The translations under genes and the position numbers were made by a program. The notes under the pieces were generated by a model. It made no database searches and was not told the DNA's origin. It saw nothing but the letters and a program-made list of their open reading frames with translations. Positions 1-30,196 of a stretch of 35,235 nucleotides of DNA are shown one piece after another; positions within the stretch are counted from its first letter, which is position 1, and each line of letters starts with the position of its first letter. The DNA comes from Candidatus Undinarchaeota archaeon (lineage in GTDB: Archaea; Undinarchaeota; Undinarchaeia; Undinarchaeales; UBA543): contig CAZMMZ010000001.1 of NCBI GenBank assembly GCA_964567575.1, forward strand, positions 1-35,235. Direction: 5' to 3'.

Positions 1-949
1 AATCAAATCCGAATCGAACTTCACTTAAACCTTGTTTCTCCATTGCAGTTCTTAACTTTTCTTTATCATTTGCGTAGAACATTAAAAATCCTCCGCCACC
101 AGCGCCAACAAGTTTTCCACCAAGTGCTCCATTTTCCATTGCAGTTGTATACCACTCGTCAATTTTCGGATTGCTCATTGAAGAAGAACGTTTCTTTTTG
201 TTTTGCCAGTGAATATCAAGAAGTTCGCCAAGTTTATCAGGATCATCAGCTTCAAATGCTTGCTTGCTTTGGAATCCAAGATCTTTTACTTTGTGGAGAT
301 TCTCAATCATTTCATCTTCATCCTGTTTGCTCTTGTCATCTTGCTCTTTCAAAATTCCAGACGCACTGCGAGAATAGTTTGTGAAAAAGAGAAGAAGATT
401 GTCTTCAAGAGTATTCATTGTGCTTTTAGAAATCTGAAGAGGTTCTGAAAGTACAGTACCATCGCGCTCGAATGTGAAGCAAGTAACTCCACCAACTGCG
501 CAGGCGTATTGGTCCTGTTTACCAATTGGTTCTTTTAGAGTATCAATTTCAATTTTGCATGCTTCCTCTGCAAGGCGTCTTGCTGAAAGTTTCTCTCGCT
601 TGTGCAAGTGCAGTGCATTCAATAAACCAACAGTGAAACAACCAGATGAACCAAGCCCTGTGCCAGCAGGAATGTCTGCCATGCTTGCCATTTCAATACC
701 GCTTTGAATGTTTGTTAATTTGAGGGCTTCGCGAATAATTGGATGTTGAAGCTCGTCAACATTTGAAACTTTTTCATGTTTGGAATAATGAGCAGTAATA
801 TCATTGTCAAAAGTCTCGTGCAGACTAATGTAAACGTATTTGTTAATAGCAGCGCTGATTAGGAACCCCCCGTACTTAGAATAATATGATTCTAGGTCAG
901 TTCCGCCTCCGCCAAGAGTTACTCTCAAAGGTGTCTGGGTTATGATCAT
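1..949 (-). CDS. hddA: GHMP-family sugar kinase, D-glycero-alpha-D-manno-heptose-7-phosphate kinase (HddA-like); 3' end runs off the window
   Basis: Absent from the ORF track because there is no stop in the window. Hand translation from ATG at 949 gives MIITQTPLRVTLGGGGTDLESYYSKYGGFLISAAINKY...IPAGTGLGSSG...IGKQDQYACAVGG...GGKLVGAGGGGF. These are the GHMP PxGxGLGSS motif and the HddA-type PLRxxxGGGGTD, GKQDQY and GAGGGG motifs. Exact substrate is inferred. Confidence 0.85.
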   Translation of the reverse strand, partial: MIITQTPLRVTLGGGGTDLESYYSKYGGFLISAAINKYVYISLHETFDNDITAHYSKHEKVSNVDELQHPIIREALKLTNIQSGIEMASMADIPAGTGLGSSGCFTVGLLNALHLHKREKLSARRLAEEACKIEIDTLKEPIGKQDQYACAVGGVTCFTFERDGTVLSEPLQISKSTMNTLEDNLLLFFTNYSRSASGILKEQDDKSKQDEDEMIENLHKVKDLGFQSKQAFEADDPDKLGELLDIHWQNKKKRSSSMSNPKIDEWYTTAMENGALGGKLVGAGGGGFLMFYANDKEKLRTAMEKQGLSEVRFGFD

Positions 950-1000: not shown

Positions 1001-3316
1001 TCAGTCGGTTTTTTTCTTTGATTTCTTCCGTAAGAAGCCTAGGTAATCAAACAGTACTTTTGGATTCCTCTTCACAAGCTGATAATACTTCTTTGCAAAC
1101 TTCCAAGGATTCCTGAACAAAAGAGACATATTAATCTTAATAATGTTCTCTGAAACCATTTGCTCAATTTCATCAGGAGTAAAATCAGGAGTGACAATGT
1201 TTCCAACCCCATAATTCACTCTTTCGAAATCGAAACCAGGTCGGAGATATCCTTTCTCTTTGCAAATCTTATATAGCTCAGTTCCAGGAAGAGGTGTTGC
1301 TATAAAAATCCCAGCAGCATCAAACTTCAAGTCTTTTGCAATATCAAAAGTCTTCTGCATTTGGTATTTCTTTTCACCTGGGAACCCTACAACAAAATAT
1401 CCTTTCACAATCAATCCAAGTTTCTTGGCATGCTTCACAATTCCCTCAACTTTTGAAAGGTTTGTGGGTTTGTGAATTATATGAGTAAGAACATCCTGAT
1501 CTCCACTCTCAACAGCAATTGTGATTTCATAACATCCAGATTCTTTCATCTTATCAAGAAGCTCATTATCTAATGCCCAAATCGCTATGCCTTGTGGAGT
1601 ATTCCAAACAATGTTAAATTTCCTGTCAATCATTCCTTGGAAAATCTTCATAGCTCTTTCTTTATTCAAAGTGAGATTATCATCTATGAATTGGAACTCT
1701 TTGATTCCATACTCTTTAATCAGAGTCTCCATTTCATCCAAAACTCTTTCAACAGCAAACGGTCGGAAACGCCTTCCCCAGAGTTTTGTAGTTGCACAGA
1801 ACACACAATTACCAGTGCATCCCCTTGAAGTTGCGATTGTAGTGTTCGGTCTTTTAAGAGAAGTTCCGCACTGAGGCAAATTAATATCAAAATAAGTTTT
1901 CATAGGAAGCAGGTGTCTTGCTGGTTTTGGAAGCTCGTTAATATCTTCTATGAATTTTGTTTTAGGATTAACATGAATCTTGCCATCTTCCTTCCAGGCA
2001 AATCCATCAATATCAGAAACAGCCTCATTGTTTTTCAATTTATTGAGAAGCTCTCTAAAAGTGTATTCGCCTTCTCCGATTATTACATAATCCAGGAAGC
2101 TGGACTTAAGGGATTGTTCGGGTAGTGCTGATGGATGAGAACCACCAATTACAACAGGAACACTAGGATCAACTTGCTTTATGGAATTACAGATTTCAAG
2201 AACAGTCTTAATCTGAGCTGTGAAAAGACAAGATACCCCAACAACATCTGGATGGTACTCAGTTATTCTCTGCTTCAAGTCTTCCATACTTATACCTAGC
2301 CGTACCATATTGTCATTAATTTTTTCAGAATGATTGAAATCCTCTGCAGCAGCATCAATAATTTTAACTTCGTATCCTGCTTTTTCCAGGACTGCACCGA
2401 GGCACGCCATACCCATTGGAGGTGATAAATCTTCTTTGTAACCGGAAAAGCTTATCCTGTGCGGGAAGATTAATAGAACTTTCTTGATGTTTTTCCCTTT
2501 TCCAACACTGTCAGGTACCCCAACAATTGTTTCAACTCTCTTATGTTCAAAAGAAGTCTGAACGCCAGATCCGCAGATTCCAGATTTTGAACAGCCTGTG
2601 CAATCAGATGATTTAGTTGTTTCTGATTTGCCCTTCAGATAATCTTTAAATTGTTTGAGTCCTTCAGGTTCGCCAATTTCATAAAACCTGTCAGAAATTT
2701 CGCAAGCAAGCAGCCCTTTGTTCGCGATTAGAGTTTGGAATATTTCTTCAAGTTGTATTACTTTTTCAGAATGAATGGAATCTAAAATGGATTTTCTAAT
2801 AATTGAAAGACCATAGTCAACATGTTTCATGTCTGGGGATTGCGCAGTCTTGTCATATTTTACAATCAGCCCATCTGCAACCTGCATGTTATTCTTATGA
2901 TATTCCAAATCATTTTTGTAAACAGTGCAAAGCGCTGACTTGTCATTCTTGTTGAAATGGTCTATTACATCTTGAAAATTAGTTGTAAGATATGAATCGC
3001 CGTAAATCACAAGGAATTTATCATCCAAAAGATCTTCAGCCTGCTTTAACGCGCCCGCAGTTCCTTTGAGGTTCTCACCTTCGTCACTGTAGCGGATTTT
3101 GACATCGAATTTTGATCCGTCTCCGAAATAATCCTTGATTTGCTGAGCCTTGTAGCCAACGCAAAGAATAATATCAGTAACTCCGTTTCTCCTGAACAAT
3201 TCAATTTGATGTTCTAGGAACGGCTTCCCATTAACTAGAATCATTGCTTTTGGAATCTTCTCAGTAATCGGACGCATACGAGTGGCCAATCCACCAGCTA
3301 GAACTACAATCTGCAT
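1001..3316 (-). CDS. Fusion: N-terminal sugar-phosphate nucleotidyltransferase (HddC/WcbM-like) + B12-binding domain + radical SAM domain
   Basis: aa 1-~230: LAGGLATRMRPITEKIPKAM and YGDSYL (NTP_transferase). aa ~290-430: PPMGMACLGAVLEKAGYEVKIIDA, PDVVGVS, VVIGGSHPS, DYVIIGEGE (B12-binding, class B rSAM). C500-x3-C504-x2-C507 in SRGCTGNCVFC, then FIDDNL, AVESG, YFVVGFPGE and PLPGTELY (rSAM core). SD-like AGGAG upstream. Confidence 0.92.
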   Translation of the reverse strand: MQIVVLAGGLATRMRPITEKIPKAMILVNGKPFLEHQIELFRRNGVTDIILCVGYKAQQIKDYFGDGSKFDVKIRYSDEGENLKGTAGALKQAEDLLDDKFLVIYGDSYLTTNFQDVIDHFNKNDKSALCTVYKNDLEYHKNNMQVADGLIVKYDKTAQSPDMKHVDYGLSIIRKSILDSIHSEKVIQLEEIFQTLIANKGLLACEISDRFYEIGEPEGLKQFKDYLKGKSETTKSSDCTGCSKSGICGSGVQTSFEHKRVETIVGVPDSVGKGKNIKKVLLIFPHRISFSGYKEDLSPPMGMACLGAVLEKAGYEVKIIDAAAEDFNHSEKINDNMVRLGISMEDLKQRITEYHPDVVGVSCLFTAQIKTVLEICNSIKQVDPSVPVVIGGSHPSALPEQSLKSSFLDYVIIGEGEYTFRELLNKLKNNEAVSDIDGFAWKEDGKIHVNPKTKFIEDINELPKPARHLLPMKTYFDINLPQCGTSLKRPNTTIATSRGCTGNCVFCATTKLWGRRFRPFAVERVLDEMETLIKEYGIKEFQFIDDNLTLNKERAMKIFQGMIDRKFNIVWNTPQGIAIWALDNELLDKMKESGCYEITIAVESGDQDVLTHIIHKPTNLSKVEGIVKHAKKLGLIVKGYFVVGFPGEKKYQMQKTFDIAKDLKFDAAGIFIATPLPGTELYKICKEKGYLRPGFDFERVNYGVGNIVTPDFTPDEIEQMVSENIIKINMSLLFRNPWKFAKKYYQLVKRNPKVLFDYLGFLRKKSKKKTD

Positions 3317-3364: not shown

Positions 3365-4333
3365 TTAGGATAATTTGAATGGGTTTTTAATCCAAAAAAG
3401 AACTCCAAAAAGATTCATAATATAATTCAAAATTAAAATCATTATAGAAAATGAAACAGCTAAACTTGAAGATATGCCAAGAAGTGTAAACATCAAGATT
3501 AAAACTGCATCCCTAGTTCCAACACCTGAAAATGAAATTGGTAATGCTTCAACAAGAGTTGTGAAAGGAAGAATCAAAATCATGTGAAAGTAGGTTACAG
3601 GGATATTGAGTGCCATTGCCCCAAAATACATTGATAAGAAACCAAATAGCCACGTAAGTATTGTAAAAAACGACAAAGAAAATACTGCTCTCTTGTTTTT
3701 AATAAAAATAAGTATGCTAGAATAAAAATCATCAAAAGCATTTCTCAGTTTACTCTGGAATTTTTCAGGGATAAGCATGTAAAAGAATGGCCTGAGAAGT
3801 TTCCTGATAATCGTCTTCTTGAGAAGTAATAAGAGTCCAAAAGCAAAAGCAATCGCCACAATAATTATTGTAATCATACTGGAATAAGAAAATGAGTAGA
3901 AATTAATAAGGAAAATTATACTGAAAAATGAAAGGATAATTAAAAAACCAATATCAAAAATTCTATCAATTAATGTAGAAGAAAATCCTTTGATAAGATT
4001 TGAATCTCCTTCTTTTTTCAAATAAAGTGCTCTTGAAAAATCACCAACTCGTCCAGGTGTGAGGGATCCAATAAAATAAGAAATTATAATTATCTTAAAA
4101 CTTTCCCAAACTGAAATTTTTATTGATAATGATTTTAAAATGCACTTCCACTTTTTGGCTTTGAAAAAAGTAACAGGCGCCATAAAAATTATTGCCAGGG
4201 AAAAATAAATTAGATTAATTTCTTTGAATGTAGTAAGAATTGAAGAAATCCCTACTTTGCTTAAAATAAAAATAAAAAGCAAAACTCCAATCAGTGGGAG
4301 TACTCGTGATATTAAATTTTTTAATTTAATCAT
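3365..4333 (-). CDS. Lysylphosphatidylglycerol synthase TM-domain / flippase-like membrane protein (UPF0104 type)
   Basis: Multi-pass hydrophobic protein with KWKCIL, SLTPGRVGDFSR, STLIDRIFD and LPISFSGVGTRD, typical of the LPG_synthase_TM family found in glycosylation loci. Confidence 0.85.
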   Translation of the reverse strand: MIKLKNLISRVLPLIGVLLFIFILSKVGISSILTTFKEINLIYFSLAIIFMAPVTFFKAKKWKCILKSLSIKISVWESFKIIIISYFIGSLTPGRVGDFSRALYLKKEGDSNLIKGFSSTLIDRIFDIGFLIILSFFSIIFLINFYSFSYSSMITIIIVAIAFAFGLLLLLKKTIIRKLLRPFFYMLIPEKFQSKLRNAFDDFYSSILIFIKNKRAVFSLSFFTILTWLFGFLSMYFGAMALNIPVTYFHMILILPFTTLVEALPISFSGVGTRDAVLILMFTLLGISSSLAVSFSIMILILNYIMNLFGVLFWIKNPFKLS

Positions 4334-6515
4334 AGTTAACTTTGAATACTTTTATTTCTCCGCCGAAATCCTGCACTAACTCAAAATGATCAAGGTTTTC
4401 TCCATTAAAGAAATGTAATTGAGTTAACATATTATTCTCTAAATGTTCTGGGAAGAATATGGCATTGCGGAAGGTAGGATCTAAGTAAAGCATTGCATCA
4501 TAAGCATTTTCATCCGGGGAGTCTACTAAATAATTATTACCTTCCTGAGAATAATAAATTCGTTTGATAGTTTGACTCTGGTATCCTTGACGTATTGATG
4601 CAGATATACTGTTTTCAGATAATGTTAAAAGAATCTGTGTATCTCCTTGAAGAGGATAAATTAAAACTTGACCAGATGCGATATTCTTTGCTTCAGATAA
4701 GGATAAGAAAGAATACCCCTGTCCCTGCCCACTAGCAAGGAAACTTATCGCCCCATATTTACTTATGAGATCTGTGCTCGTATAGAAATACGAGACCTCA
4801 TATTTCTTCAGTCTCTCGACAGCTATAGCCTCATCAGTTGTTGTAAATGCAATTGCAAGATCATGAACATGATACCCATTTTGACTCCCGTCAGCAACAG
4901 CTGGCCGCTCACCAATAGCAGTCATTGCATGCCCAGGATCCCACCAAGAAGCAAAGATTGAATCTGTTGGTGTTGAATCGCGAGCCCAATACAAAAAGTC
5001 AAACCAGTTCTGACCAAGTGATGGACCAGATTGCAATGCAGAAAGTTTACCTGTCTTGTAATAAGAAATTCCACTTTGTCCACCTGGTTCAATTGAGATG
5101 TTTGGAACTGCGAATATCAACAATAATACTATAAGGATTGTAATAATTGAAACAATTGGTTTTTTAGCTTTGATTTTGGATACTGCAAAACCAATTGAGA
5201 TTCCAGCAAAGATACAGAGAGGAAGTGCTAACATTGTAACAAATCTTGTTGCTTTCAAAGACATGTAAACACTAGCCGCGAGCCAGAGTGTAAAGAAAGC
5301 CAGGTGCGATAGATTACCCTTTAATTTTTTCCACAAACCTAACGGCAGAAGCGCAAGGAAGGATAGCGTCAGTAAAACAGGAGCGATATGTAATCTGTTT
5401 ATAATTTGTCTTAGAGATGCTGGATTCATTTCAGAAACTGTTTTGTAAACATTTCTGACTTCTTCCCCACCGGGAGCGTCTACTAAAACTTCTGAAACTT
5501 TTAATTGCGTTCCTGCAGTGATAGAGGATAGAATATTGACATGAGCCATACCCCTACTAATACCAACAATAGACAATCCAAGAACAAGAACAATTGCAAA
5601 GACAATATATTTTTTCCAATTTGTTTGGAAATGCTCTTTAACTAAATTAAGAAGATTTCGACTGCCTGAGATGAATTTTACTCCAATCTGATAAATAAAA
5701 TAAAATCCAACAAGACCTATCATTAAGATAGGGACAAATGTATAAGCAGTCCAAGTAAGTCCGAACAGTCCTAGACAGATACCTCCGGCTATACCATAGA
5801 TATACGACGAATTATCCCAAGCTTTTAGGAATAAATAAAAGGTGAATACTGTGAAAAAAGCAACTATAGCATCACTATCTGCAAAACCAGAAACACTTCT
5901 TGTAATAAATGATGGGGCAAGTGAGAAAAGGAATCCGGCAGAAAGACCCGCATACGGACCAAATAATTGCTTAACAAGTAAAAACATTCCTAGAACAGCG
6001 AGAACTCCAAACATAGCAGGTGTCCAGCGATGCCAGACTAATAAACTAGGTGCGAATATCCGACCGAAATATTTGTAGGAATATGCTGAGAAATATGGAT
6101 AGAATTCTTGATATGCTCGTCCACCTTCAGGAGCGTCGTGCATAGTATCCCACGCATATAACGTCGCACCATTCGGACACGGATCAGAGAATTCAACTTC
6201 TTCACCAAGAACTTCACTATAACAAATTTTCGTATCGCCAACATAACCGTGATCATAAACATTCTTAGCGTGTCTGTAATGCCAATAAGGATCCATTGCT
6301 GAGAGAGAATTTTCATGGATTCCAGTATATTTTTCTTCAGGGGCAAATCTAAGCCAACCTGAGAATAAAAGAAGTGCAAAAAGTAACAAATAAATTATAA
6401 CTTTTTTATGGTTTTTTAACCAGCTTCCTGCTTTCGAAAGATCCAACGCCATTTCATCTCCAGAGTCTTTATCGCGTTTGAATTTTCCTTTTAGTTTTTC
6501 AAAACTAAAGGACAT
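4326..6515 (-). CDS. aglB: Oligosaccharyltransferase AglB (STT3 family), paralogue 1
   Basis: AMDPYWH, RSVSGFADSD (DxD), KTVSE (TIXE-like), SWWDPGH, ADGSQ and many TM helices. Start placed at 6515 (MSFS) because GGAGG lies 6 nt upstream; the track ORF begins at 6545. Confidence 0.93.
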   Translation of the reverse strand: MSFSFEKLKGKFKRDKDSGDEMALDLSKAGSWLKNHKKVIIYLLLFALLLFSGWLRFAPEEKYTGIHENSLSAMDPYWHYRHAKNVYDHGYVGDTKICYSEVLGEEVEFSDPCPNGATLYAWDTMHDAPEGGRAYQEFYPYFSAYSYKYFGRIFAPSLLVWHRWTPAMFGVLAVLGMFLLVKQLFGPYAGLSAGFLFSLAPSFITRSVSGFADSDAIVAFFTVFTFYLFLKAWDNSSYIYGIAGGICLGLFGLTWTAYTFVPILMIGLVGFYFIYQIGVKFISGSRNLLNLVKEHFQTNWKKYIVFAIVLVLGLSIVGISRGMAHVNILSSITAGTQLKVSEVLVDAPGGEEVRNVYKTVSEMNPASLRQIINRLHIAPVLLTLSFLALLPLGLWKKLKGNLSHLAFFTLWLAASVYMSLKATRFVTMLALPLCIFAGISIGFAVSKIKAKKPIVSIITILIVLLLIFAVPNISIEPGGQSGISYYKTGKLSALQSGPSLGQNWFDFLYWARDSTPTDSIFASWWDPGHAMTAIGERPAVADGSQNGYHVHDLAIAFTTTDEAIAVERLKKYEVSYFYTSTDLISKYGAISFLASGQGQGYSFLSLSEAKNIASGQVLIYPLQGDTQILLTLSENSISASIRQGYQSQTIKRIYYSQEGNNYLVDSPDENAYDAMLYLDPTFRNAIFFPEHLENNMLTQLHFFNGENLDHFELVQDFGGEIKVFKVNYD

Positions 6516-6579
6516 ACTGTCCTCCCCCTCATTAGCCATGCACATTGGTTGAGAAATACAATTAATAAAGGTTATGATT

Positions 6580-8736
6580 TCAGCCTAAAAATTTGAAAAC
6601 TTTGATTTCTTCATTGAAATTTCCAACAAGTTGGAAATGATCAAGATTTTGTCCATTGAAAAAGTGCAATTGCGTTAACATATTATTCTCTAAATGTTCT
6701 GGGAAGAACAGAACACTATCAAACTCAGGAGTGACATATAATAAATTAGACGTGCTGTTTATGTTTGAAGATTCAAGAAGGTATTGTTGATCGTCAATGT
6801 AATATAGAATTTTGTTGAGTTCGTAGTTTCTCCCAGCTTCTTTGAGAATAGCACTAACATGATCGCCATCAATATTTAAAATAATTTTAGAAGACGGGCT
6901 TAAATAATAAATAAAAAGACTACCAGATGCAGTTTCTTTAATTTCACTTAATGCTGCTATAGGATAACTAACTTTTTGGCCAGTTACAAGGAAACTTATT
7001 GCTTCATATTTAAGTAATAGATCGCTACTCGTATAGAAATAAGAAGTATTGTATTTTTTTAATCGCTCAAAAGCTAAAGATTCATCTGTTGTTGTAAGTG
7101 CAACTCCAAGATCGTGAACATGATAATCATTCTGGCTTCCATCAGCAACAGACGGGCGCTCACCAACAGCAGTCATTGCATGACCAGGATCCCACCAAGA
7201 AGCAAAAATCGCATCTTTAGGAGTTGAATCACGGGCCCAATGTAAAAAGTCAAACCAATTTGGCCCAAGTATTGAATTTGCTTGGGTGGCAATAAGTTTT
7301 CCAGTTTTATAGTAAGAAATTCCAGCTGACGAGGTTGGTGACATTGAAAGGTTTGGAAGTGCGAATAGTAATAAGAACAAAACAATAATTGTGAGAACAG
7401 AAACAACTGGTTTTTTAAATTTGATTTTTGAAACTGCAAAAGCAACTGAAGTTCCAGCAAAAATACAGATAGGTAATGATAACATTCCGACAAATCTTGT
7501 GGCCTTTAGAGACATGTAAATGCTAGCTAAAAGCCAAACAGAAAAAAGTACCAAATGAGGAATATATTTCTTTACTTTTTTCCATAACCCTACTGGTAAA
7601 AGCGCAAAGAAAGCTGCTGCTAGTAAAAACGGAGCTAGGTGTATTCGTTGAATTACTTGTCTTAAAGAAAGAGATTGCAATTCAATAATTGTTTTATGAA
7701 CATTTCTAACAGATTCTCCTTCAAGAGAAGCTTCAGAAAGTTCTACGTTTTTTAATTTTGTTGACGCTGTGATTGAAGAAAGAATATTGGCATGGCCAAT
7801 ACCTTTGACAAAACCAACAATAGATAATCCAAGAACAATCACAATTGCAAAGATAACATACTTTTTCCAATTGGTTTCTAAATGATCTTTAATTAATTGA
7901 AAAATATTTTTACTTTTTTTACGGAATTTTCTGGCAATTTGATAAAGGAAATAAAATCCAGCAAAACCGAACATTAAAACAGGAACAAATGAATACGCTG
8001 TCCAGGTTATTCCAAAAAGACCAAGACAGAGACCACCAAGAACTCCATAAACATACGAAGATTTATCCCACGCTTTTATGAATAAGTAAAAAGTAAATAT
8101 TGTAAAGAACGCAACGAGCGCATCTGTATCAGCAAAACCAGAAACACTTCGTGTAAGAAAGATTGGAGAAATGGAATATAAAAGTGCAGCAAAAATTCCT
8201 GCAGAAGATCCAAACAAATGTTTAACAAGAAGAAACATACCAAGAACTGCAAAAAGAGCAAAGAACACAGGAGTCCACCTGTGCCAAGTTAAAAGATTAG
8301 GAGCAAAGAAACTTCCAAAATATTTGTAAGAATACGCAGAGAAATATGGATAAAATTCTTGATACGCTCGACTTCCTTCAGGAGCATCGTGCATAGTATC
8401 CCAATAAACTTCCTCACCATCAACAATCCTTATTTCATCACCAATATATCCATGTTCATAAACATTTTTGGCGTGGCGATAATGCCAATAAGGATCCATA
8501 GCAGCGAACCCATCAGAGAGGTCTCCTGTGAATTTTTTTTCAGGAATAAATCGAATCCACGCAGAGAAAAACAATAAGAGAATTAATAGAACATACAGAA
8601 TGGTTTTTTTATTTTGTTTAACCCATTTACTAATAGCAGAAAGATTAAGTCGCACTTCATCTTTTTCCTTCTTGTGCTTTTTATTTTGAATATCCCCACC
8701 TGAAAGATAAGACGTATCTATATCTACATCACTCAT
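6580..8736 (-). CDS. aglB: Oligosaccharyltransferase AglB (STT3 family), paralogue 2
   Basis: AMDPYWH, RSVSGFADTD, KTIIE (TIXE), SWWDPGH and ADGSQ; colinear with and clearly homologous to paralogue 1. Confidence 0.93.
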   Translation of the reverse strand: MSDVDIDTSYLSGGDIQNKKHKKEKDEVRLNLSAISKWVKQNKKTILYVLLILLLFFSAWIRFIPEKKFTGDLSDGFAAMDPYWHYRHAKNVYEHGYIGDEIRIVDGEEVYWDTMHDAPEGSRAYQEFYPYFSAYSYKYFGSFFAPNLLTWHRWTPVFFALFAVLGMFLLVKHLFGSSAGIFAALLYSISPIFLTRSVSGFADTDALVAFFTIFTFYLFIKAWDKSSYVYGVLGGLCLGLFGITWTAYSFVPVLMFGFAGFYFLYQIARKFRKKSKNIFQLIKDHLETNWKKYVIFAIVIVLGLSIVGFVKGIGHANILSSITASTKLKNVELSEASLEGESVRNVHKTIIELQSLSLRQVIQRIHLAPFLLAAAFFALLPVGLWKKVKKYIPHLVLFSVWLLASIYMSLKATRFVGMLSLPICIFAGTSVAFAVSKIKFKKPVVSVLTIIVLFLLLFALPNLSMSPTSSAGISYYKTGKLIATQANSILGPNWFDFLHWARDSTPKDAIFASWWDPGHAMTAVGERPSVADGSQNDYHVHDLGVALTTTDESLAFERLKKYNTSYFYTSSDLLLKYEAISFLVTGQKVSYPIAALSEIKETASGSLFIYYLSPSSKIILNIDGDHVSAILKEAGRNYELNKILYYIDDQQYLLESSNINSTSNLLYVTPEFDSVLFFPEHLENNMLTQLHFFNGQNLDHFQLVGNFNEEIKVFKFLG

Positions 8737-10310: not shown

Positions 10311-12269
10311 TTATTTCCCTGCTAACTCTTTTCCTTTCTGTGCAATAAATTCAGCAGACAAACCAAAATACTTGACTAATTCCCAAGAACCACCAGATTC
10401 TCCGAATCTGTCAGGAACTCCAATCATTGCAAACTTTTCAGGAGCAACTCCTGCTTCGAGTAGTGCCGCTGCAACACGATTTCCAAGCCCGCCTTTCTGA
10501 TGCTCTTCTGCTGTGATTACAATCTTAGTTTCCTTACCAGCTTTTGCAAGTGTATCATTATCTAATGGTTTGAGAGTATGCATATTAATTATTCTGGTTT
10601 CAATTCCAAATTCTTCTTTCAAAATCCAAGCAGCTCGCATTGCTTCAGGAACTTCTGGACCGCATGCAACAATTGTTAAGTCCTCATTCTCAGATTTGTA
10701 ATCAGATGCAAGTTTAGTTTCAAATGCATCAATGAAATTTTCTTTTGCTCCTCTGTATCGGATAACATTTGCTGTTCCGAATTTATATGGAGTAGATTCC
10801 GTTGTTACAATTGGAGTAGACTCGCGAGCGTATCGAATATAACAAGGACCTTCAATATCAAGAATCATTGTATTTGATGCTTTCTTAGTTTCAATAGAAT
10901 CGCAAGGAACAAATACATTCATATTTGGTAAACCACACATTTGGAAAATATCTTCAAGAGCTTGGTGAGTTGCACCATCCGGTCCAACAGAAACCCCACC
11001 ATGTGCCCCAGTGATTTTAACATTGTAATTCCCATAGCAAACAGTTGTGCGGATTTGATCAAGTGCTCGGCCTGCTGAGAAAACTGCATAAGTTCCAAAG
11101 ATTGGAATCTTTCCTTCTTTTGCAAGACCTGCAGCAACTGCAGTTCCGCTTTGCTCTGCAATTCCCATACTCAAGAACCGATCATTACGATGTTTTTTGT
11201 CCTTGTGAAACATGTCGATGCATATTGATCCTGAGATATCAGCTCCAAGACAAACAATTCTTGGATCATCTCCAACCTCAGCAAGACATTCACCAAAACC
11301 TTTTCGAGTTGGCCTCATCTCTGCTTTCATATTGTCTTGTTCATTCCACCAATAATTTTTTGAAAATTTAGGAAGATTGCCTTCAACTTTCTTATCCATT
11401 TTTGTTTGGTAGTCTTGAGCAATTTTCAAAAGATCATCAACAGGAAGTTCAACCCCGATTTCTTTCAATGCCTGATCAAGCTGTTCTCTGTTAGGAGCTT
11501 TGCCGTGCCAGCCAGCTTCATTCTCCATAAAAGAAACAGACTTTCCTTTTACAGTGTTTGCAAGAATAGCTGTTGGTTTTTCCTTGACTGTTTTTGCTTT
11601 CTCGTAAGCATCAACGATTTGTTGCATGTTGTGGCCATCAATTTCAATTACATTCCAGCCAAAAGATTCGTACTTTGCTTTCAATTCACCCAAATCCATA
11701 ACATCACTAACTTTGCCATCAATTTGTAAGCGATTAATATCAACAATTGCAACAAGGTTATCGAGTTTGTAATGAGCTGCTTCCATTACAGCTTCCCAAA
11801 CCTGTCCTTCTTGCTGTTCGCCATCACCCATTAAACAATAAACTCTGTGATCTTTCTTGTCAAGCCGTCCAGCAAGTGCCATTCCAACAGCAATGCTTAA
11901 ACCCTGACCAAGCGACCCTGTGGACGCTTCAACTCCCTCAAGTTTGAGTCTGTGCGGATGTCCCTGATAAGGACTTTCAAGTTTTCTGAGTTTCATTAAA
12001 TCCTTGATATCAAAATAACCAGAATATCCAAGAGCTGTGTAAAGTGCAGGAGCTTTGTGCCCTGCAGAGAATAAGAAACGATCACGATCTTCCATTTGCG
12101 GATTCTTTGGATCGTGCTTCATTACATTAAGATACGCAGCTGCAACAAGATCCATACAAGATAATGAACCACCAGTGTGGCCAGAACCAGCAGCATGCAG
12201 AGCAACAAGCATATATGCTCGCATTTCTTTTACTGCGTTTTCAAGTTCAGGTATTGAGAGTTTTTTCAT
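10311..12269 (-). CDS. tkt: Transketolase, TPP-binding and pyrimidine/C-terminal domains in one chain
   Basis: GSGHTGGSLS, RFLFSAGHKAPALY, STGSLGQG, TPP motif GDGEQQEG...N, GIAEQ, VGPDGATHQ, AEEHQ. Confidence 0.93.
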   Translation of the reverse strand: MKKLSIPELENAVKEMRAYMLVALHAAGSGHTGGSLSCMDLVAAAYLNVMKHDPKNPQMEDRDRFLFSAGHKAPALYTALGYSGYFDIKDLMKLRKLESPYQGHPHRLKLEGVEASTGSLGQGLSIAVGMALAGRLDKKDHRVYCLMGDGEQQEGQVWEAVMEAAHYKLDNLVAIVDINRLQIDGKVSDVMDLGELKAKYESFGWNVIEIDGHNMQQIVDAYEKAKTVKEKPTAILANTVKGKSVSFMENEAGWHGKAPNREQLDQALKEIGVELPVDDLLKIAQDYQTKMDKKVEGNLPKFSKNYWWNEQDNMKAEMRPTRKGFGECLAEVGDDPRIVCLGADISGSICIDMFHKDKKHRNDRFLSMGIAEQSGTAVAAGLAKEGKIPIFGTYAVFSAGRALDQIRTTVCYGNYNVKITGAHGGVSVGPDGATHQALEDIFQMCGLPNMNVFVPCDSIETKKASNTMILDIEGPCYIRYARESTPIVTTESTPYKFGTANVIRYRGAKENFIDAFETKLASDYKSENEDLTIVACGPEVPEAMRAAWILKEEFGIETRIINMHTLKPLDNDTLAKAGKETKIVITAEEHQKGGLGNRVAAALLEAGVAPEKFAMIGVPDRFGESGGSWELVKYFGLSAEFIAQKGKELAGK

Positions 12270-27844: not shown

Positions 27845-30196
27845 TTATACTTCGTAAACTGTTTTACCAGCTAGGCTTGCTGTATCCTTTGTTAGGATTG
27901 CAGCTGCTTTTGCTGTACCAGCTCTGTCGGAACCTGCAACAACAATTGCGTACTTTCCAGTAGCAAATGCATCTGCAACAAGTTCAATTACACCAGCACC
28001 AGCTGAAGCAATATCAGCTGTTGAACCAGCAGCACCGATTGTCTTTGTAAGTTTTCCTTCGGTCTGTAGGCCGTTCACAAGTGTGTTGACAGCTGGACCA
28101 CCAACAAGAACCAAGTTGTAACCGGTCTTGTCAGCTGAAGTTACATCAGTGTCAAGTTTGGAGATAGCTGATGGTAGAGTTGCTTTTGTAACTCCTCCAA
28201 CGCTTCCTTCAACCATAACTTGCATGTCGCCTACTGCAACTGTCTCGCCAGCTTCTGCACTTATAGGTGTGCCTTCAAGTTCAGCTTGGGTACCAACAAC
28301 ATATTCACTGAAGAGCTGCTCTTGTGGAGCTCTCAATGAAACTAAGGTTTGACCGACACTGTCCACATATGTTCCCCATCGTGTGTAGTAATCACGGGTT
28401 AGAGGTGTGGTTGTTCCTTCTCTTGCGATGAAGTCAACAGTTGTGTCATATTCAACATAGTTTGCGTTGTGTGTGTACTCATCCTCAAACTGACCAACAC
28501 TGCTTGCAGCTGAAGAGTTGTAGGACATAGTTATGTTATAACCAGTTGATGTAACATCTGTGGTTGGGTCTGAGATAGAGAAGTTACCCAACTCTGTCAT
28601 GTTTCCCTGTGTTGCTCCGCCTGATGTTGAGTTACCTACATAGTACATCAACATGTTGTTAGAGGTTGTCAACTTAATGTATGGTCTGTTGGTTGACAGC
28701 AATGGTATTGGAGAACCAGTAACACGTGTGTATGTCAATGTTGATTGACTTGGGTCTTTGTAGAACCATCTGTTCATATTCATACTGGAATATGAACTGG
28801 TGTTTGCCTCTGTTGTGTTAATCCATATTTCATCCGTAATCATGGATGTATTTGAAGAATCCTTGTAGGAAATGTATTCTCCGCCAGGGGTTCTAATACG
28901 TAGTACTGCTTGTGCAGCACCATTTTTGTCCAAATCACGGGTTGTTGGCATAATGTCAATGTCAACGAATGCTGGTTCTTCTCCATACTTGTCTGTTAGA
29001 CCGTTGTATGTTAAACCGAACAAATCGTTTGGTGACATTATAGAATCGCCTGGATACAACACAGTGTTAGTTGAACTAACAGTTGTGTGAGGCTCTGTGT
29101 CTACAACCTTGAGGTATTTAATACTGGTTTCTGAACCAGAAACTTCATGGGTTGTTTGCCAAGTTGTCTCAGTTCCATCACCGAGTTTTAGGTAGCCACC
29201 ATCCTCAAGTTTGAGAATACCAGCACCAACTACAACCTGTGCTTCTCCTTCATTTGTTCCAGAAGTTGTAACAACAGCGTTCTTAACGTAAACTTCAATA
29301 CCTGCAAGTGTCTCTGTGCTGCCAGAATCTACATACTTTGTTTCTGTAGTTCCGCCGCTTGTAACAGTGACTTTTGCTTTGTATGTGTTACTTGTACCAG
29401 CTGCGTAAATACCACCGAGTGTGGTCTCAACGCCACCAATAGTGATTGAAGGGTCTGCAGTTGTTAAAACAACTTCAGCATCGGATGCACCGAGTTTAAT
29501 TTGGTCATTAATAACGGCAGAAATAACTGTGTATTCCTTACCCATGAACCAAAGCTTTTTACCTTTCAAATCAGCACCAGCAACAGATGTAATGAAGTAC
29601 AGTTGATATTCTACTGCATTTCCTTGGGTTTCAAGGAAAATTTCATCAAATTTGTCCCCGTCATTTGTGTCTTTCTGATCACGAAGTGATTTGATTTTAC
29701 TAAGGTCAACATCTACTTTCTCATACCAATTAATTTCAGTAGAGTTGATGTATAGTGCACCTTTGTCTTTGTAACTGTAGAGATACTCTACAATTCCATC
29801 ACCAGATGCGAATCCAGCTGCTCCGATTGTGTCGGTTGATGCATTTGATCCACCGAACTCGAAAGCGCCTTCTGCATCCTGATCAAATTCTACGTGTCGT
29901 TTGACACCACTAACGTCTGTGGAGATTGGTGTAAGGGTTACTCCCCCTTCGCCAGATCCCTCTGTTAATACGTTCTGACCGATATACGCACCCATGTTGA
30001 TTGCACTGACAACGTCAGCTGTTGCTGCGTTAGCACCAACCACAATCATTCCGCCGACAACACCGTCAGCTACCATGAGGTCCGTATAGTCGCCTAAATC
30101 TTTTGTGTCCGCAGCTAGAGCTGCACCTGCTAGGGTTGCGCCAATCATGACGGCAGACCCGAGAGCTGCTCCAACTTTCTTCCACATGCTTTGCAT
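27845..30196 (-). CDS. S-layer glycoprotein (Methanococcales/Thermococcales-type S_layer_N and S_layer_C domains)
   Basis: KKVGAALGSAVMIGATLAGA signal, VVGANAATADVVSA (N domain), LVLVGGPAVNTLV and IVVAGSDRAGTAKAA (C domain), GGAGGT SD, ten sequons. Confidence 0.92.
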   Translation of the reverse strand: MQSMWKKVGAALGSAVMIGATLAGAALAADTKDLGDYTDLMVADGVVGGMIVVGANAATADVVSAINMGAYIGQNVLTEGSGEGGVTLTPISTDVSGVKRHVEFDQDAEGAFEFGGSNASTDTIGAAGFASGDGIVEYLYSYKDKGALYINSTEINWYEKVDVDLSKIKSLRDQKDTNDGDKFDEIFLETQGNAVEYQLYFITSVAGADLKGKKLWFMGKEYTVISAVINDQIKLGASDAEVVLTTADPSITIGGVETTLGGIYAAGTSNTYKAKVTVTSGGTTETKYVDSGSTETLAGIEVYVKNAVVTTSGTNEGEAQVVVGAGILKLEDGGYLKLGDGTETTWQTTHEVSGSETSIKYLKVVDTEPHTTVSSTNTVLYPGDSIMSPNDLFGLTYNGLTDKYGEEPAFVDIDIMPTTRDLDKNGAAQAVLRIRTPGGEYISYKDSSNTSMITDEIWINTTEANTSSYSSMNMNRWFYKDPSQSTLTYTRVTGSPIPLLSTNRPYIKLTTSNNMLMYYVGNSTSGGATQGNMTELGNFSISDPTTDVTSTGYNITMSYNSSAASSVGQFEDEYTHNANYVEYDTTVDFIAREGTTTPLTRDYYTRWGTYVDSVGQTLVSLRAPQEQLFSEYVVGTQAELEGTPISAEAGETVAVGDMQVMVEGSVGGVTKATLPSAISKLDTDVTSADKTGYNLVLVGGPAVNTLVNGLQTEGKLTKTIGAAGSTADIASAGAGVIELVADAFATGKYAIVVAGSDRAGTAKAAAILTKDTASLAGKTVYEV

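Follow-up and report, generated by a model that had tools for sequence, protein, structure and literature searches.

A sugar-1-phosphate nucleotidyltransferase fused in frame to a cobalamin-dependent radical SAM domain in an Undinarchaeota heptose locus: a candidate for sugar-nucleotide C-methylation

Class B radical S-adenosylmethionine (rSAM) enzymes form a very large group whose members mostly have no known function, and the unknown substrate is the main obstacle for most of them. Here we describe a gene at positions 1001..3316 (minus strand) of a DNA stretch from a Candidatus Undinarchaeota archaeon, in which such an enzyme is fused to a sugar-1-phosphate nucleotidyltransferase. The fusion ties an orphan rSAM domain to the maker of its presumed substrate, in a pathway whose steps can be followed from the individual genes. 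The whole stretch that was analysed (from here: the window) has a length of 35,235 nt and constitutes the first 35 kb of contig C1; the genome comprises 745 kb and is 82% complete. The gene appears to be part of a heptose and surface glycan locus, and its rSAM half is a candidate for tailoring the heptose that would be made there.

The gene consists of a single open reading frame (ORF) encoding 771 amino acids (aa) plus a stop codon; it starts with ATG and has no internal stop. The original prediction, which was based on the nucleotide sequence of the window, had stated no strand for this gene. The plus-strand translation of 1001-3316 is riddled with stops and was rejected as a reading for this reason, placing the gene on the minus strand. 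The uninterrupted 771-aa frame with an NTP_transferase domain, a B12-binding domain and a CxxxCxxC radical SAM domain that had been predicted was recovered in the ORF check and by Pfam, as were its neighbours by Pfam and NCBIfam, an HddA-like kinase on one side and flippase and aglB genes on the other. Upstream of the ATG a TATA-like TTATAAAA and an AAGGAG were seen by eye; promoter and terminator scans gave no more matches than were found in shuffled sequence.

The first 234 residues (2615..3316, minus strand) form an HddC-like sugar-1-phosphate nucleotidyltransferase domain (from here: N-domain), recognised by the Pfam family NTP_transferase (PF00483; residues 4-135, E 3e-23). Its completeness is evident from alignments with stand-alone orthologues of 232-240 aa, which match the ~230-aa domain end to end at 67%, 47% and 41% identity. 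The N-domain shows the size (~220-235 aa) and the motifs of the NTP_transferase fold, GGxGTR(L/M)xP...PK and the metal-binding GD and (D/E)xG, and its invariant residues G8, G9, T12, R13, P22, K23, G106 and D107 are intact. The signature reads LAGGLATRMRPITEKIPK, in which the second glycine is changed to alanine in this genus and is glycine in the relatives G008 and G010; YGDSY and YEIGEPE also occur and match the stand-alone orthologues in the alignment. Among NCBIfam families the best matches were Arch_glmU (125 bits), MurU (120 bits) and HddC (115 bits), all below cut-off, which for the HddC equivalog (NF049965) stands at 300 bits. The HddC structures 5XHW and 6JQ8 were among the PDB sequence matches.

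The N-domain is followed by a 41-residue linker (residues 235-275; 2492..2614, minus strand) that belongs to the fusions only, as alignments revealed no counterpart in stand-alone nucleotidyltransferases or in stand-alone rSAM relatives. No other part of the protein varies as much (46-80% identity), and an AlphaFold2 model predicts the linker to be disordered, with a predicted local distance difference test score (pLDDT) below 50. The linker contains a C239-x2-C242-x5-C248 motif (2573..2602, minus strand), the three cysteines of which are kept in 4/4 fusion sequences while the intervening residues vary. It is possible that this motif constitutes a metal, iron-sulphur or auxiliary-cluster site, perhaps one created by the fusion itself.

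A cobalamin-binding domain at residues 299-424 (2045..2422, minus strand; PF02310, E 1e-27, 96 bits), for which the genome search gave the same coordinates, precedes the radical SAM core at residues 496-658 (1343..1831, minus strand; PF04055, E 4e-19, 70 bits). This order of a B12-binding Rossmann domain N-terminal to a CxxxCxxC radical SAM TIM barrel is that of class B enzymes. The cluster motif C500-x3-C504-x2-C507 is located at 1796-1819, and all three cysteines are invariant across 31 relatives. The protein ends with a cationic amphipathic tail of 39 residues (733-771; 1004..1120, minus strand), whose helical hydrophobic moment of 0.74 is the maximum within the protein (mean 0.25) and which contains 12 lysine or arginine residues compared to 2 aspartate or glutamate residues (net charge +10). 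The start of this tail is kept in the consensus of the stand-alone relatives as RNPxxFxKKY, and the tail may serve as a peripheral membrane anchor.

A chimeric origin of the ORF during assembly was an obvious concern, and the original prediction had named a misjoin or a stop in the linker as the finding that would speak against it. Neither was seen at the sequence level. The same frame of 769-771 aa including the linker is present in four independent assemblies at 77-92% identity, with copies in G012 of the same genus (92%), on contigs L009/L010 of a JGI metagenome (P0003, 80%) and, as a partial protein, in a metagenome-assembled genome at NCBI (P0004, 77%). Between this genome (G000) and G012 the ratio of nonsynonymous to synonymous substitution rates (dN/dS) is 0.046 for the nucleotidyltransferase domain, 0.030 for the rSAM part and 0.14 for the linker, at a dS of ~1.1-1.2, which means that synonymous sites are near saturation; the values for the linker overall range from 0.14 to 0.32. 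The frame common to four assemblies together with the low dN/dS rules out, on sequence grounds, a chimeric join as well as a recent frameshift artefact. The values of 0.046 and 0.030 at near-saturated dS further argue that both halves are maintained by selection as a single protein.

The gene order in the sister species G013, from the same genus, is aminotransferase, transketolase, PTH2, TruD, AglB, AglB, flippase, nucleotidyltransferase, kinase and short-chain dehydrogenase/reductase (SDR). The nucleotidyltransferase in this series is a stand-alone protein of 232 aa with 67% identity to residues 1-228 of the fusion; its stop codon overlaps the kinase start, and the top rSAM match in this genome reaches 31% identity only. 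Stand-alone orthologues of 232-240 aa are also found within heptose-type clusters of G008 (47%) and G010 (41%), which represent two other families. The N-domain is hence orthologous to the pathway's stand-alone nucleotidyltransferase in three relatives, which fits the original prediction, and would be the pathway's own HddC-type enzyme. The same synteny around a stand-alone nucleotidyltransferase in G013 argues that the rSAM half was acquired as an add-on for tailoring that the pathway can do without, inserted between nucleotidyltransferase and kinase and fused in frame.

The kinase gene downstream of the fusion (2..949, minus strand) encodes an HddA-like GHMP sugar kinase, with HddA as the best NCBIfam match at 180-185 bits, below cut-off, and is cut by the contig end. 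The end of another contig, C10, overlaps the start of the window exactly over 55 nt, and the kinase C-terminus continues there. After the kinase end, C10 carries genes for a classical SDR, a GFO/IDH/MocA oxidoreductase, a SIS protein (best match gmhA), a HAD-IIIA phosphatase (best matches GmhB), a TAL/FSA transaldolase (223 bits compared to a cut-off of 246 bits for the FSA/TalC equivalog), a 246-aa family 2 glycosyltransferase (GT2), an extended SDR of the epimerase/dehydratase kind and a PMT_2-type protein, which is a GT-C glycosyltransferase. Upstream of the fusion are genes for a flippase-like membrane protein (3365..4333, minus strand; LPG_synthase_TM, TIGR00374) and two AglB/STT3 oligosaccharyltransferases (4326..6545 and 6580..8736, both minus strand; Pfam), followed by a transketolase (10311..12269, minus strand; Pfam) whose synteny is common to G012, G013 and L009. 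The tandem pair of AglB/STT3 genes is shared with G012 and G013; a single such gene is present in the JGI relative L009. Over the C10/C1 locus the gene order is identical in G012 and in L009/L010.

We assign these genes to a heptose pathway because of their best family matches and because the gene set is complete and conserved; all of the encoded heptose-pathway proteins score below the NCBIfam equivalog cut-offs. The N-domain is the sole nucleotidyltransferase of the cluster that holds the GmhA-, HddA- and GmhB-like genes. The locus would thereby cover the path from glycolytic intermediates via sedoheptulose-7-phosphate, heptose-7-phosphate, heptose-1,7-bisphosphate and heptose-1-phosphate to a nucleoside diphosphate (NDP)-heptose, and the route onward would proceed through a polyprenyl-phosphate sugar and the flippase to GT-C/AglB. 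Activation of a heptose by the nucleotidyltransferase had been proposed from the window, and the GmhA- and GmhB-like, transaldolase, GT2, epimerase and GT-C genes on the abutting C10 fit this proposal. A likely acceptor of the cluster's glycan is an S-layer protein of 783 aa with an S_layer_C domain, encoded at 27845..30196.

The rSAM half has a different history. In a FastTree phylogeny the four fusion rSAM domains form one clade within a 27-member group of stand-alone proteins of ~500 aa, with a local support of 100% for both the fusion clade and the group and an identity of 56-61%. Few members of this group carry a source name, and those that do are bacterial (Vulcanimicrobiota, Coatesbacteria). 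Other B12-rSAM genes of Undinarchaeota have at most 39% identity to the fused domain. The nesting among stand-alone proteins and the distance to the other Undinarchaeota genes argue for horizontal acquisition of the rSAM domain.

The best named family of the rSAM half is NF038361 (SD_1168 P-methyltransferase), which matched with 313 bits compared to a cut-off of 575 bits and over positions 61-540 of the hidden Markov model (HMM), leaving positions 1-60 unmatched; HpnJ, BchE, ApyD, MgmA and PhpK were the next NCBIfam families. A relative with 44% identity (P0041) carries the JGI label 'phosphonoacetaldehyde methylase'. The model of this half has a pLDDT above 90; among solved structures its fold is closest to those of TsrM, AprD4, MgmA, CysS, TokK and OxsB, all of them class B-type rSAM enzymes with an identity of at most 21%. 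AprD4 was also the top PDB sequence match (82 bits), limited to residues 461-692 and thus to the rSAM core. A look-up in the ESM Atlas returned generic 'B12-binding/radical SAM' clusters only. Genes for PEP (phosphoenolpyruvate) mutase, phosphonopyruvate decarboxylase and phosphonoacetaldehyde reductase, the context of a Fom3-type enzyme, were absent from the window and from the syntenic relatives. Since the scores for HddC and SD_1168 were below their cut-offs and Fom3 did not agree with the context, we file the two halves under their broad classes only, as a sugar-1-phosphate nucleotidyltransferase and a class B radical SAM enzyme.

The original prediction had suggested a search for the domain architecture and a comparison of neighbourhoods. 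In an HMMER scan that exhaustively covered 1.84 billion cluster representatives, 10,735 matched at E <= 1e-30, a count that includes matches to the nucleotidyltransferase half. The architecture NTP_transferase + B12 + rSAM was found only twice in the scan, in the fusion's own cluster and in P0141. This protein (728 aa) and P0082 (1115 aa), both from ENA metagenomes, share 60% mutual identity and combine an SD_1168-like rSAM domain with a nucleotidyltransferase domain of a different kind, PntC/LicC-like, and therefore represent a second, independent lineage of nucleotidyltransferase-rSAM fusions. P0082 additionally contains a PhnW 2-aminoethylphosphonate aminotransferase domain (405 bits, above cut-off), and the lineage suggests a radical modification of a cytidine monophosphate (CMP)-linked aminophosphonate. 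An HD-domain gene is adjacent in both cases; the neighbours of P0082 further include a CDP-OH_P_transf gene and another B12-rSAM gene.

Further fusions occur in the clade. In P0155 (L127:310-3123) a B12-rSAM is fused to a DegT/DnrJ/EryC1 sugar-nucleotide aminotransferase, within an operon of the NDP-aminosugar type that has RmlA-, RmlB- and ketoisomerase-like genes, a GT2, a GT4 and a second B12-rSAM. The rSAM domain of P0149 is fused to methyltransferase and GT2 domains, and those of P0123 and P0160 are fused to class I methyltransferases. The fusions of P0155 and P0149 and the second nucleotidyltransferase-rSAM lineage, which arose independently, point to nucleotide-linked substrates.

We also inspected 136 proteins flanking 43 GTDB homologues with 30-45% identity. 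These included 13 GT2, 13 class I methyltransferases, 8 GT1/GT4, 5 epimerase/dehydratases, 4 NeuB, 4 PMT_2 and 3 DegT proteins, and several B12-rSAM paralogues are arrayed at many of the clade's loci. Within the sister group, P0012 is located among PMT_2, GT2, GFO/IDH/MocA, carbamoyltransferase, DegT and methyltransferase genes and P0018 adjoins PMT_2 and DUF2079. A relative with 51% identity directly follows a GT9 (heptosyltransferase-family) gene, with GT4 and PMT_2 genes adjoining. Most sampled neighbourhoods of the rSAM clade are glycan clusters. The statement that the architecture was not known as characterised also held: it is rare, and within the incomplete coverage of our literature search we found no description of it nor of a B12-rSAM enzyme acting on a sugar nucleotide.

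The closest functional parallel comes from fosfomycin biosynthesis. Fom3 methylates 2-hydroxyethylphosphonate (2-HEP) solely as the CMP adduct made by the cytidylyltransferase Fom1 (PMC8158854). The logic proposed here is the same, in that a nucleotidyltransferase would make a nucleotide-linked intermediate and a class B rSAM enzyme would then C-methylate an sp3 carbon that is unactivated and bears a hydroxyl group. A further similarity is the fusion of the nucleotidyltransferase with a second enzyme of the pathway; however, Fom1 joins the cytidylyltransferase to a PEP mutase rather than to an rSAM enzyme, and the substrate is a phosphonate (2-HEP-CMP) rather than a sugar. Moreover, the N-domain is an HddC/RmlA-type sugar-1-phosphate transferase, unlike Fom1, and the comparison with Fom3 is one by description, not by sequence.

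With the bacterial HddA/HddC pathway to guanosine diphosphate (GDP)-heptose the locus shares the same four enzyme types and the same best family matches. The archaeal proteins differ in scoring below the equivalog cut-offs, and their output would feed an archaeal AglB/GT-C system. Further tailoring at the GDP-heptose level is established in Campylobacter (PMC10680097). The known tailoring enzymes of GDP-heptose are dehydrogenases, dehydratases, epimerases, reductases and O-methyltransferases, and we found no report of a radical SAM enzyme among them in the literature. SD_1168 (Sden_1168) has the same domain order as the rSAM half, which in turn lacks the ~60-residue N-terminal extension of SD_1168 and lies in a context without a P-H substrate. 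The activity of SD_1168 is known only as P-methylation of a surrogate phosphinate in vitro. Among class B enzymes, for which methylation is the majority chemistry, GenK, GenD1, Fms7 and MoeK5 are sugar C-methylases (PMC12931638). The reaction proposed here would resemble theirs, a cobalamin-dependent radical methylation of unactivated sugar carbons, but they act on aminoglycoside pseudo-oligosaccharides or on a lipid-linked sugar instead of on sugar nucleotides, and none of them is fused to a nucleotidyltransferase.

Taking these lines together, we favour the reading that the rSAM domain tailors the heptose of the pathway, to which we assign a probability of about 0.5. A nucleotide-activated sugar would be the most economical substrate of the fused domain because of the clade's neighbourhoods, its other fusions and the Fom1/Fom3 precedent. 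The specific version, C-methylation at the NDP-sugar stage, is put forward more tentatively. It is a somewhat bolder proposal still, and one we regard as open to doubt, that this is the first cobalamin-dependent radical SAM enzyme to C-methylate a sugar nucleotide, converting NDP-heptose into a C-methyl-heptose with eight carbons that would enter the surface glycan of an archaeon. The sequence of events in the original prediction, activation of a heptose followed by modification of the NDP-sugar, fits the testable genomic evidence (pathway, orthology, glycan clusters and fusions), and its chemical part stands as a proposal.

Judging from gene content, transketolase and transaldolase would supply sedoheptulose-7-phosphate, which the GmhA-, HddA- and GmhB-like enzymes would convert to heptose-1-phosphate. 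The N-domain, by its orthology, would make the NDP-heptose, with GDP as the probable nucleotide by analogy with bacteria. The rSAM domain would then act on the heptose while it still bears the nucleotide handle, as suggested by the fusion, by the other fusions of the clade and by Fom1/Fom3. Following reductive cleavage of SAM, the 5'-deoxyadenosyl radical would abstract hydrogen from a heptose carbon that is unactivated and bears a hydroxyl group; the methyl group would most likely come from methylcobalamin. The likeliest site is the terminal C7, by analogy with Fom3 (C2 of HEP-CMP) and GenK (C6'). The predicted product is a C-methyl-heptose with an additional mass of 14 Da (+14 Da), equivalent to an 8-deoxy-octose. 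For export, the small GT2 would load the modified sugar onto polyprenyl phosphate, the flippase-like protein would flip it, and the PMT_2-type GT-C and/or AglB would attach it to glycoproteins of the cell surface, for example the S-layer protein. The rSAM step would be optional, as the sister species G013 runs the cluster without it.

Several observations weigh against this reading. The nearest named family, SD_1168, is matched far below its cut-off, the top PDB sequence match AprD4 is a diol dehydratase, and no close solved structure or characterised orthologue of the rSAM half was found. Methylation is not the only reaction of class B rSAM enzymes (PMC12931638). In the full-length AlphaFold2 model the domains are not confidently docked and the N-domain is poorly modelled, the latter because the alignment is thin; two of the three added stand-alone nucleotidyltransferases (2/3) aligned badly. 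The genome has three B12-binding rSAM genes (on C1, C4 and C10), and neither CobS nor a FecCD/BtuC-type permease was found in its 82% complete sequence; therefore, cobalamin must come from outside or the respective genes must lie in the missing 18%. The Vulcanimicrobiota members of the 56-61% clade are located between a thioredoxin-like gene and a transporter gene of the major facilitator superfamily (MFS), without sugar genes, and such genes are also missing at loci L011/L012. Genes for GmhA, HddA, GmhB and transaldolase were found within 10 kb of none of 80 GTDB homologues (0/80) by phmmer and custom HMMs for GHMP, SIS, HAD and TAL. A general link between the rSAM clade and heptose genes was therefore rejected; the heptose link is specific to this fusion, and the clade is not heptose-specific. 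Finally, the amphipathic tail and the recurring small GT2 and GT-C neighbours fit a polyprenyl-phosphate sugar equally well.

In this last case, the rSAM domain would modify the heptose after the GT2 has moved it onto polyprenyl (dolichyl) phosphate at the cytoplasmic membrane face, and the fusion would ensure co-expression and supply near the membrane. We regard such a lipid-linked substrate as less likely, but as a rival to be taken seriously. It has more in its favour than the tail, which shows the strongest amphipathic moment of the protein, a net charge of +10 and a start that is kept in stand-alone relatives. MoeK5 C-methylates a lipid-linked sugar, and the small GT2 genes that recurrently adjoin the relatives, along with PMT_2/GT-C genes, resemble polyprenyl-phosphate sugar synthases. 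For B12-rSAM enzymes of archaea that act on lipids, a peripheral membrane location with a C-terminal anchor is predicted (bioRxiv 10.1101/2025.10.20.683597). Yet fusion to a soluble nucleotidyltransferase, and elsewhere to DegT and PntC-like domains, ties the clade to nucleotide-bound substrates, Fom3 needs its nucleotide handle (PMC8158854), and the anchoring of the tail is itself a prediction from sequence. Less probable again is a reaction on the pathway's heptose that involves no methylation, such as an AprD4-type dehydration or deoxygenation, an epimerisation or a rearrangement of the carbon skeleton. AprD4 is among the top fold matches as well, SDR and GFO-type redox genes lie next door, and OxsB, BchE, HpnJ and the Grs and Ted enzymes are B12-rSAM enzymes that are not methylases (PMC12931638). 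However, the AprD4 match is confined to the core, the B12-binding domain is strong and canonical (96 bits), and SD_1168 and most characterised class B enzymes are methyltransferases (PMC12931638). The SDR and GFO genes also occur in G013 and G008, both of which lack the rSAM, and are therefore not dedicated partners of it.

Two further explanations depart from the heptose altogether, and both appear improbable to us. The rSAM domain might act on a substrate unrelated to it, for instance a phosphonate, a peptide or a lipid or carrier of the membrane, and have come to lie in the cluster through an accident of insertion. The original prediction had named an rSAM domain that acts on lipids or tRNA, independently of the sugar product, as a finding against it, and the Vulcanimicrobiota loci leave some probability for an action on something other than the NDP-sugar. 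An unrelated substrate would agree with the Vulcanimicrobiota members at 56-61% identity that have no sugar genes nearby, with a P-methyltransferase as the nearest named family, with the existence of lipid-modifying archaeal B12-rSAM enzymes and with a PEP mutase phosphonate cluster on C10 of the same genome. An accidental fusion is hard to reconcile with the in-frame junction at a dN/dS of ~0.03-0.05 through saturating synonymous divergence; most sampled neighbourhoods of the clade are glycan clusters, the PEP mutase gene is near none of 80 homologues and the phosphonate cluster has its own B12-rSAM with 28% identity only. Alternatively, and with marginally less to recommend it, the cluster could make an NDP-octose that the rSAM domain tailors, via a lincosamide-type route in which an LmbR-like transaldolase joins C3 and C5 units and LmbN/P/K/O-like isomerase, kinase, phosphatase and nucleotidyltransferase follow. 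The five enzyme types TAL/FSA, SIS, GHMP, HAD and NTP_transferase, which are those of the Lmb octose route, are all present. But the best family matches are gmhA, GmhB and HddA, the transaldolase is near an ordinary FSA/TalC equivalog (223 vs 246 bits), and transketolase plus transaldolase exactly suffice for the synthesis of sedoheptulose-7-phosphate from glycolytic intermediates in a genome this small.

If tailoring of the NDP-heptose by radical C-methylation is true, this chemistry would join the known ways of diversifying sugar nucleotides, and a new eight-carbon sugar would be predicted in the surface glycan of a DPANN archaeon. Surface chemistry probably matters for attachment to the host, and cobalamin would need to be scavenged. 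As a Rosetta stone, the fusion would then assign the tailoring of NDP-sugars to a whole clade of orphan B12-rSAM proteins, which is large and has many members within the glycan clusters of bacteria and archaea that have not been cultured. The sister species without the rSAM serves as a natural negative control. All of the chemistry is inferred; the fusion should be of interest for radical SAM enzymology and for archaeal glycobiology.

A role of the fusion in phosphonate metabolism was hinted at by the SD_1168 match and by P0082. It was rejected as a main reading and kept only as a minor part of the explanation by an unrelated substrate, as a distance of 10 kb around the 80 GTDB homologues contained neither PepM nor the decarboxylase Ppd in any case (0/80) and the phosphonate cluster of the genome has a separate rSAM with 28% identity to the fused one. 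This cluster (C10:8113-15598, L015) is complete despite its location in a very small genome and encodes a PEP mutase (320 bits, which equals the equivalog cut-off) with a nucleotidyltransferase fused to its C-terminus, a two-subunit decarboxylase of the phosphonopyruvate/sulfopyruvate type (Ppd), an iron-type alcohol dehydrogenase (Fe-ADH), a 245-aa nucleotidyltransferase whose gene overlaps that of a 499-aa B12-rSAM by 8 nt, a CDP-alcohol phosphatidyltransferase (CDP-OH_P_transf) and a class I methyltransferase. With PepM-NTPt, Ppd, Fe-ADH, NTPt, B12-rSAM and CDP-OH_P_transf, it represents a split version of Fom-like logic. It resembles the early steps of Fom1/Fom2/FomC/Fom3 and would end in a transfer to lipid or glycan, possibly of a (hydroxypropyl)phosphonate head group.

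Next to this cluster on C10 (5068-8116, L015) is a second heptose route, of the adenosine diphosphate (ADP)-heptose type, with genes for a GmhA-like SIS protein, a PfkB kinase, a CTP_transf_like adenylyltransferase and a GT9 heptosyltransferase-family protein. The organism thus appears to make two differently activated heptoses. At the Vulcanimicrobiota-type loci L013, L014, L123 and L124, a trio of genes for a thioredoxin-like protein (137 aa), a B12-rSAM with 57-58% identity to the fused domain and an MFS transporter is adjoined by a gene for a giant FHA-domain protein. In another member of the same rSAM clade, P0231 (797 aa), an intein that includes an HNH endonuclease separates the B12-binding domain from the rSAM core.

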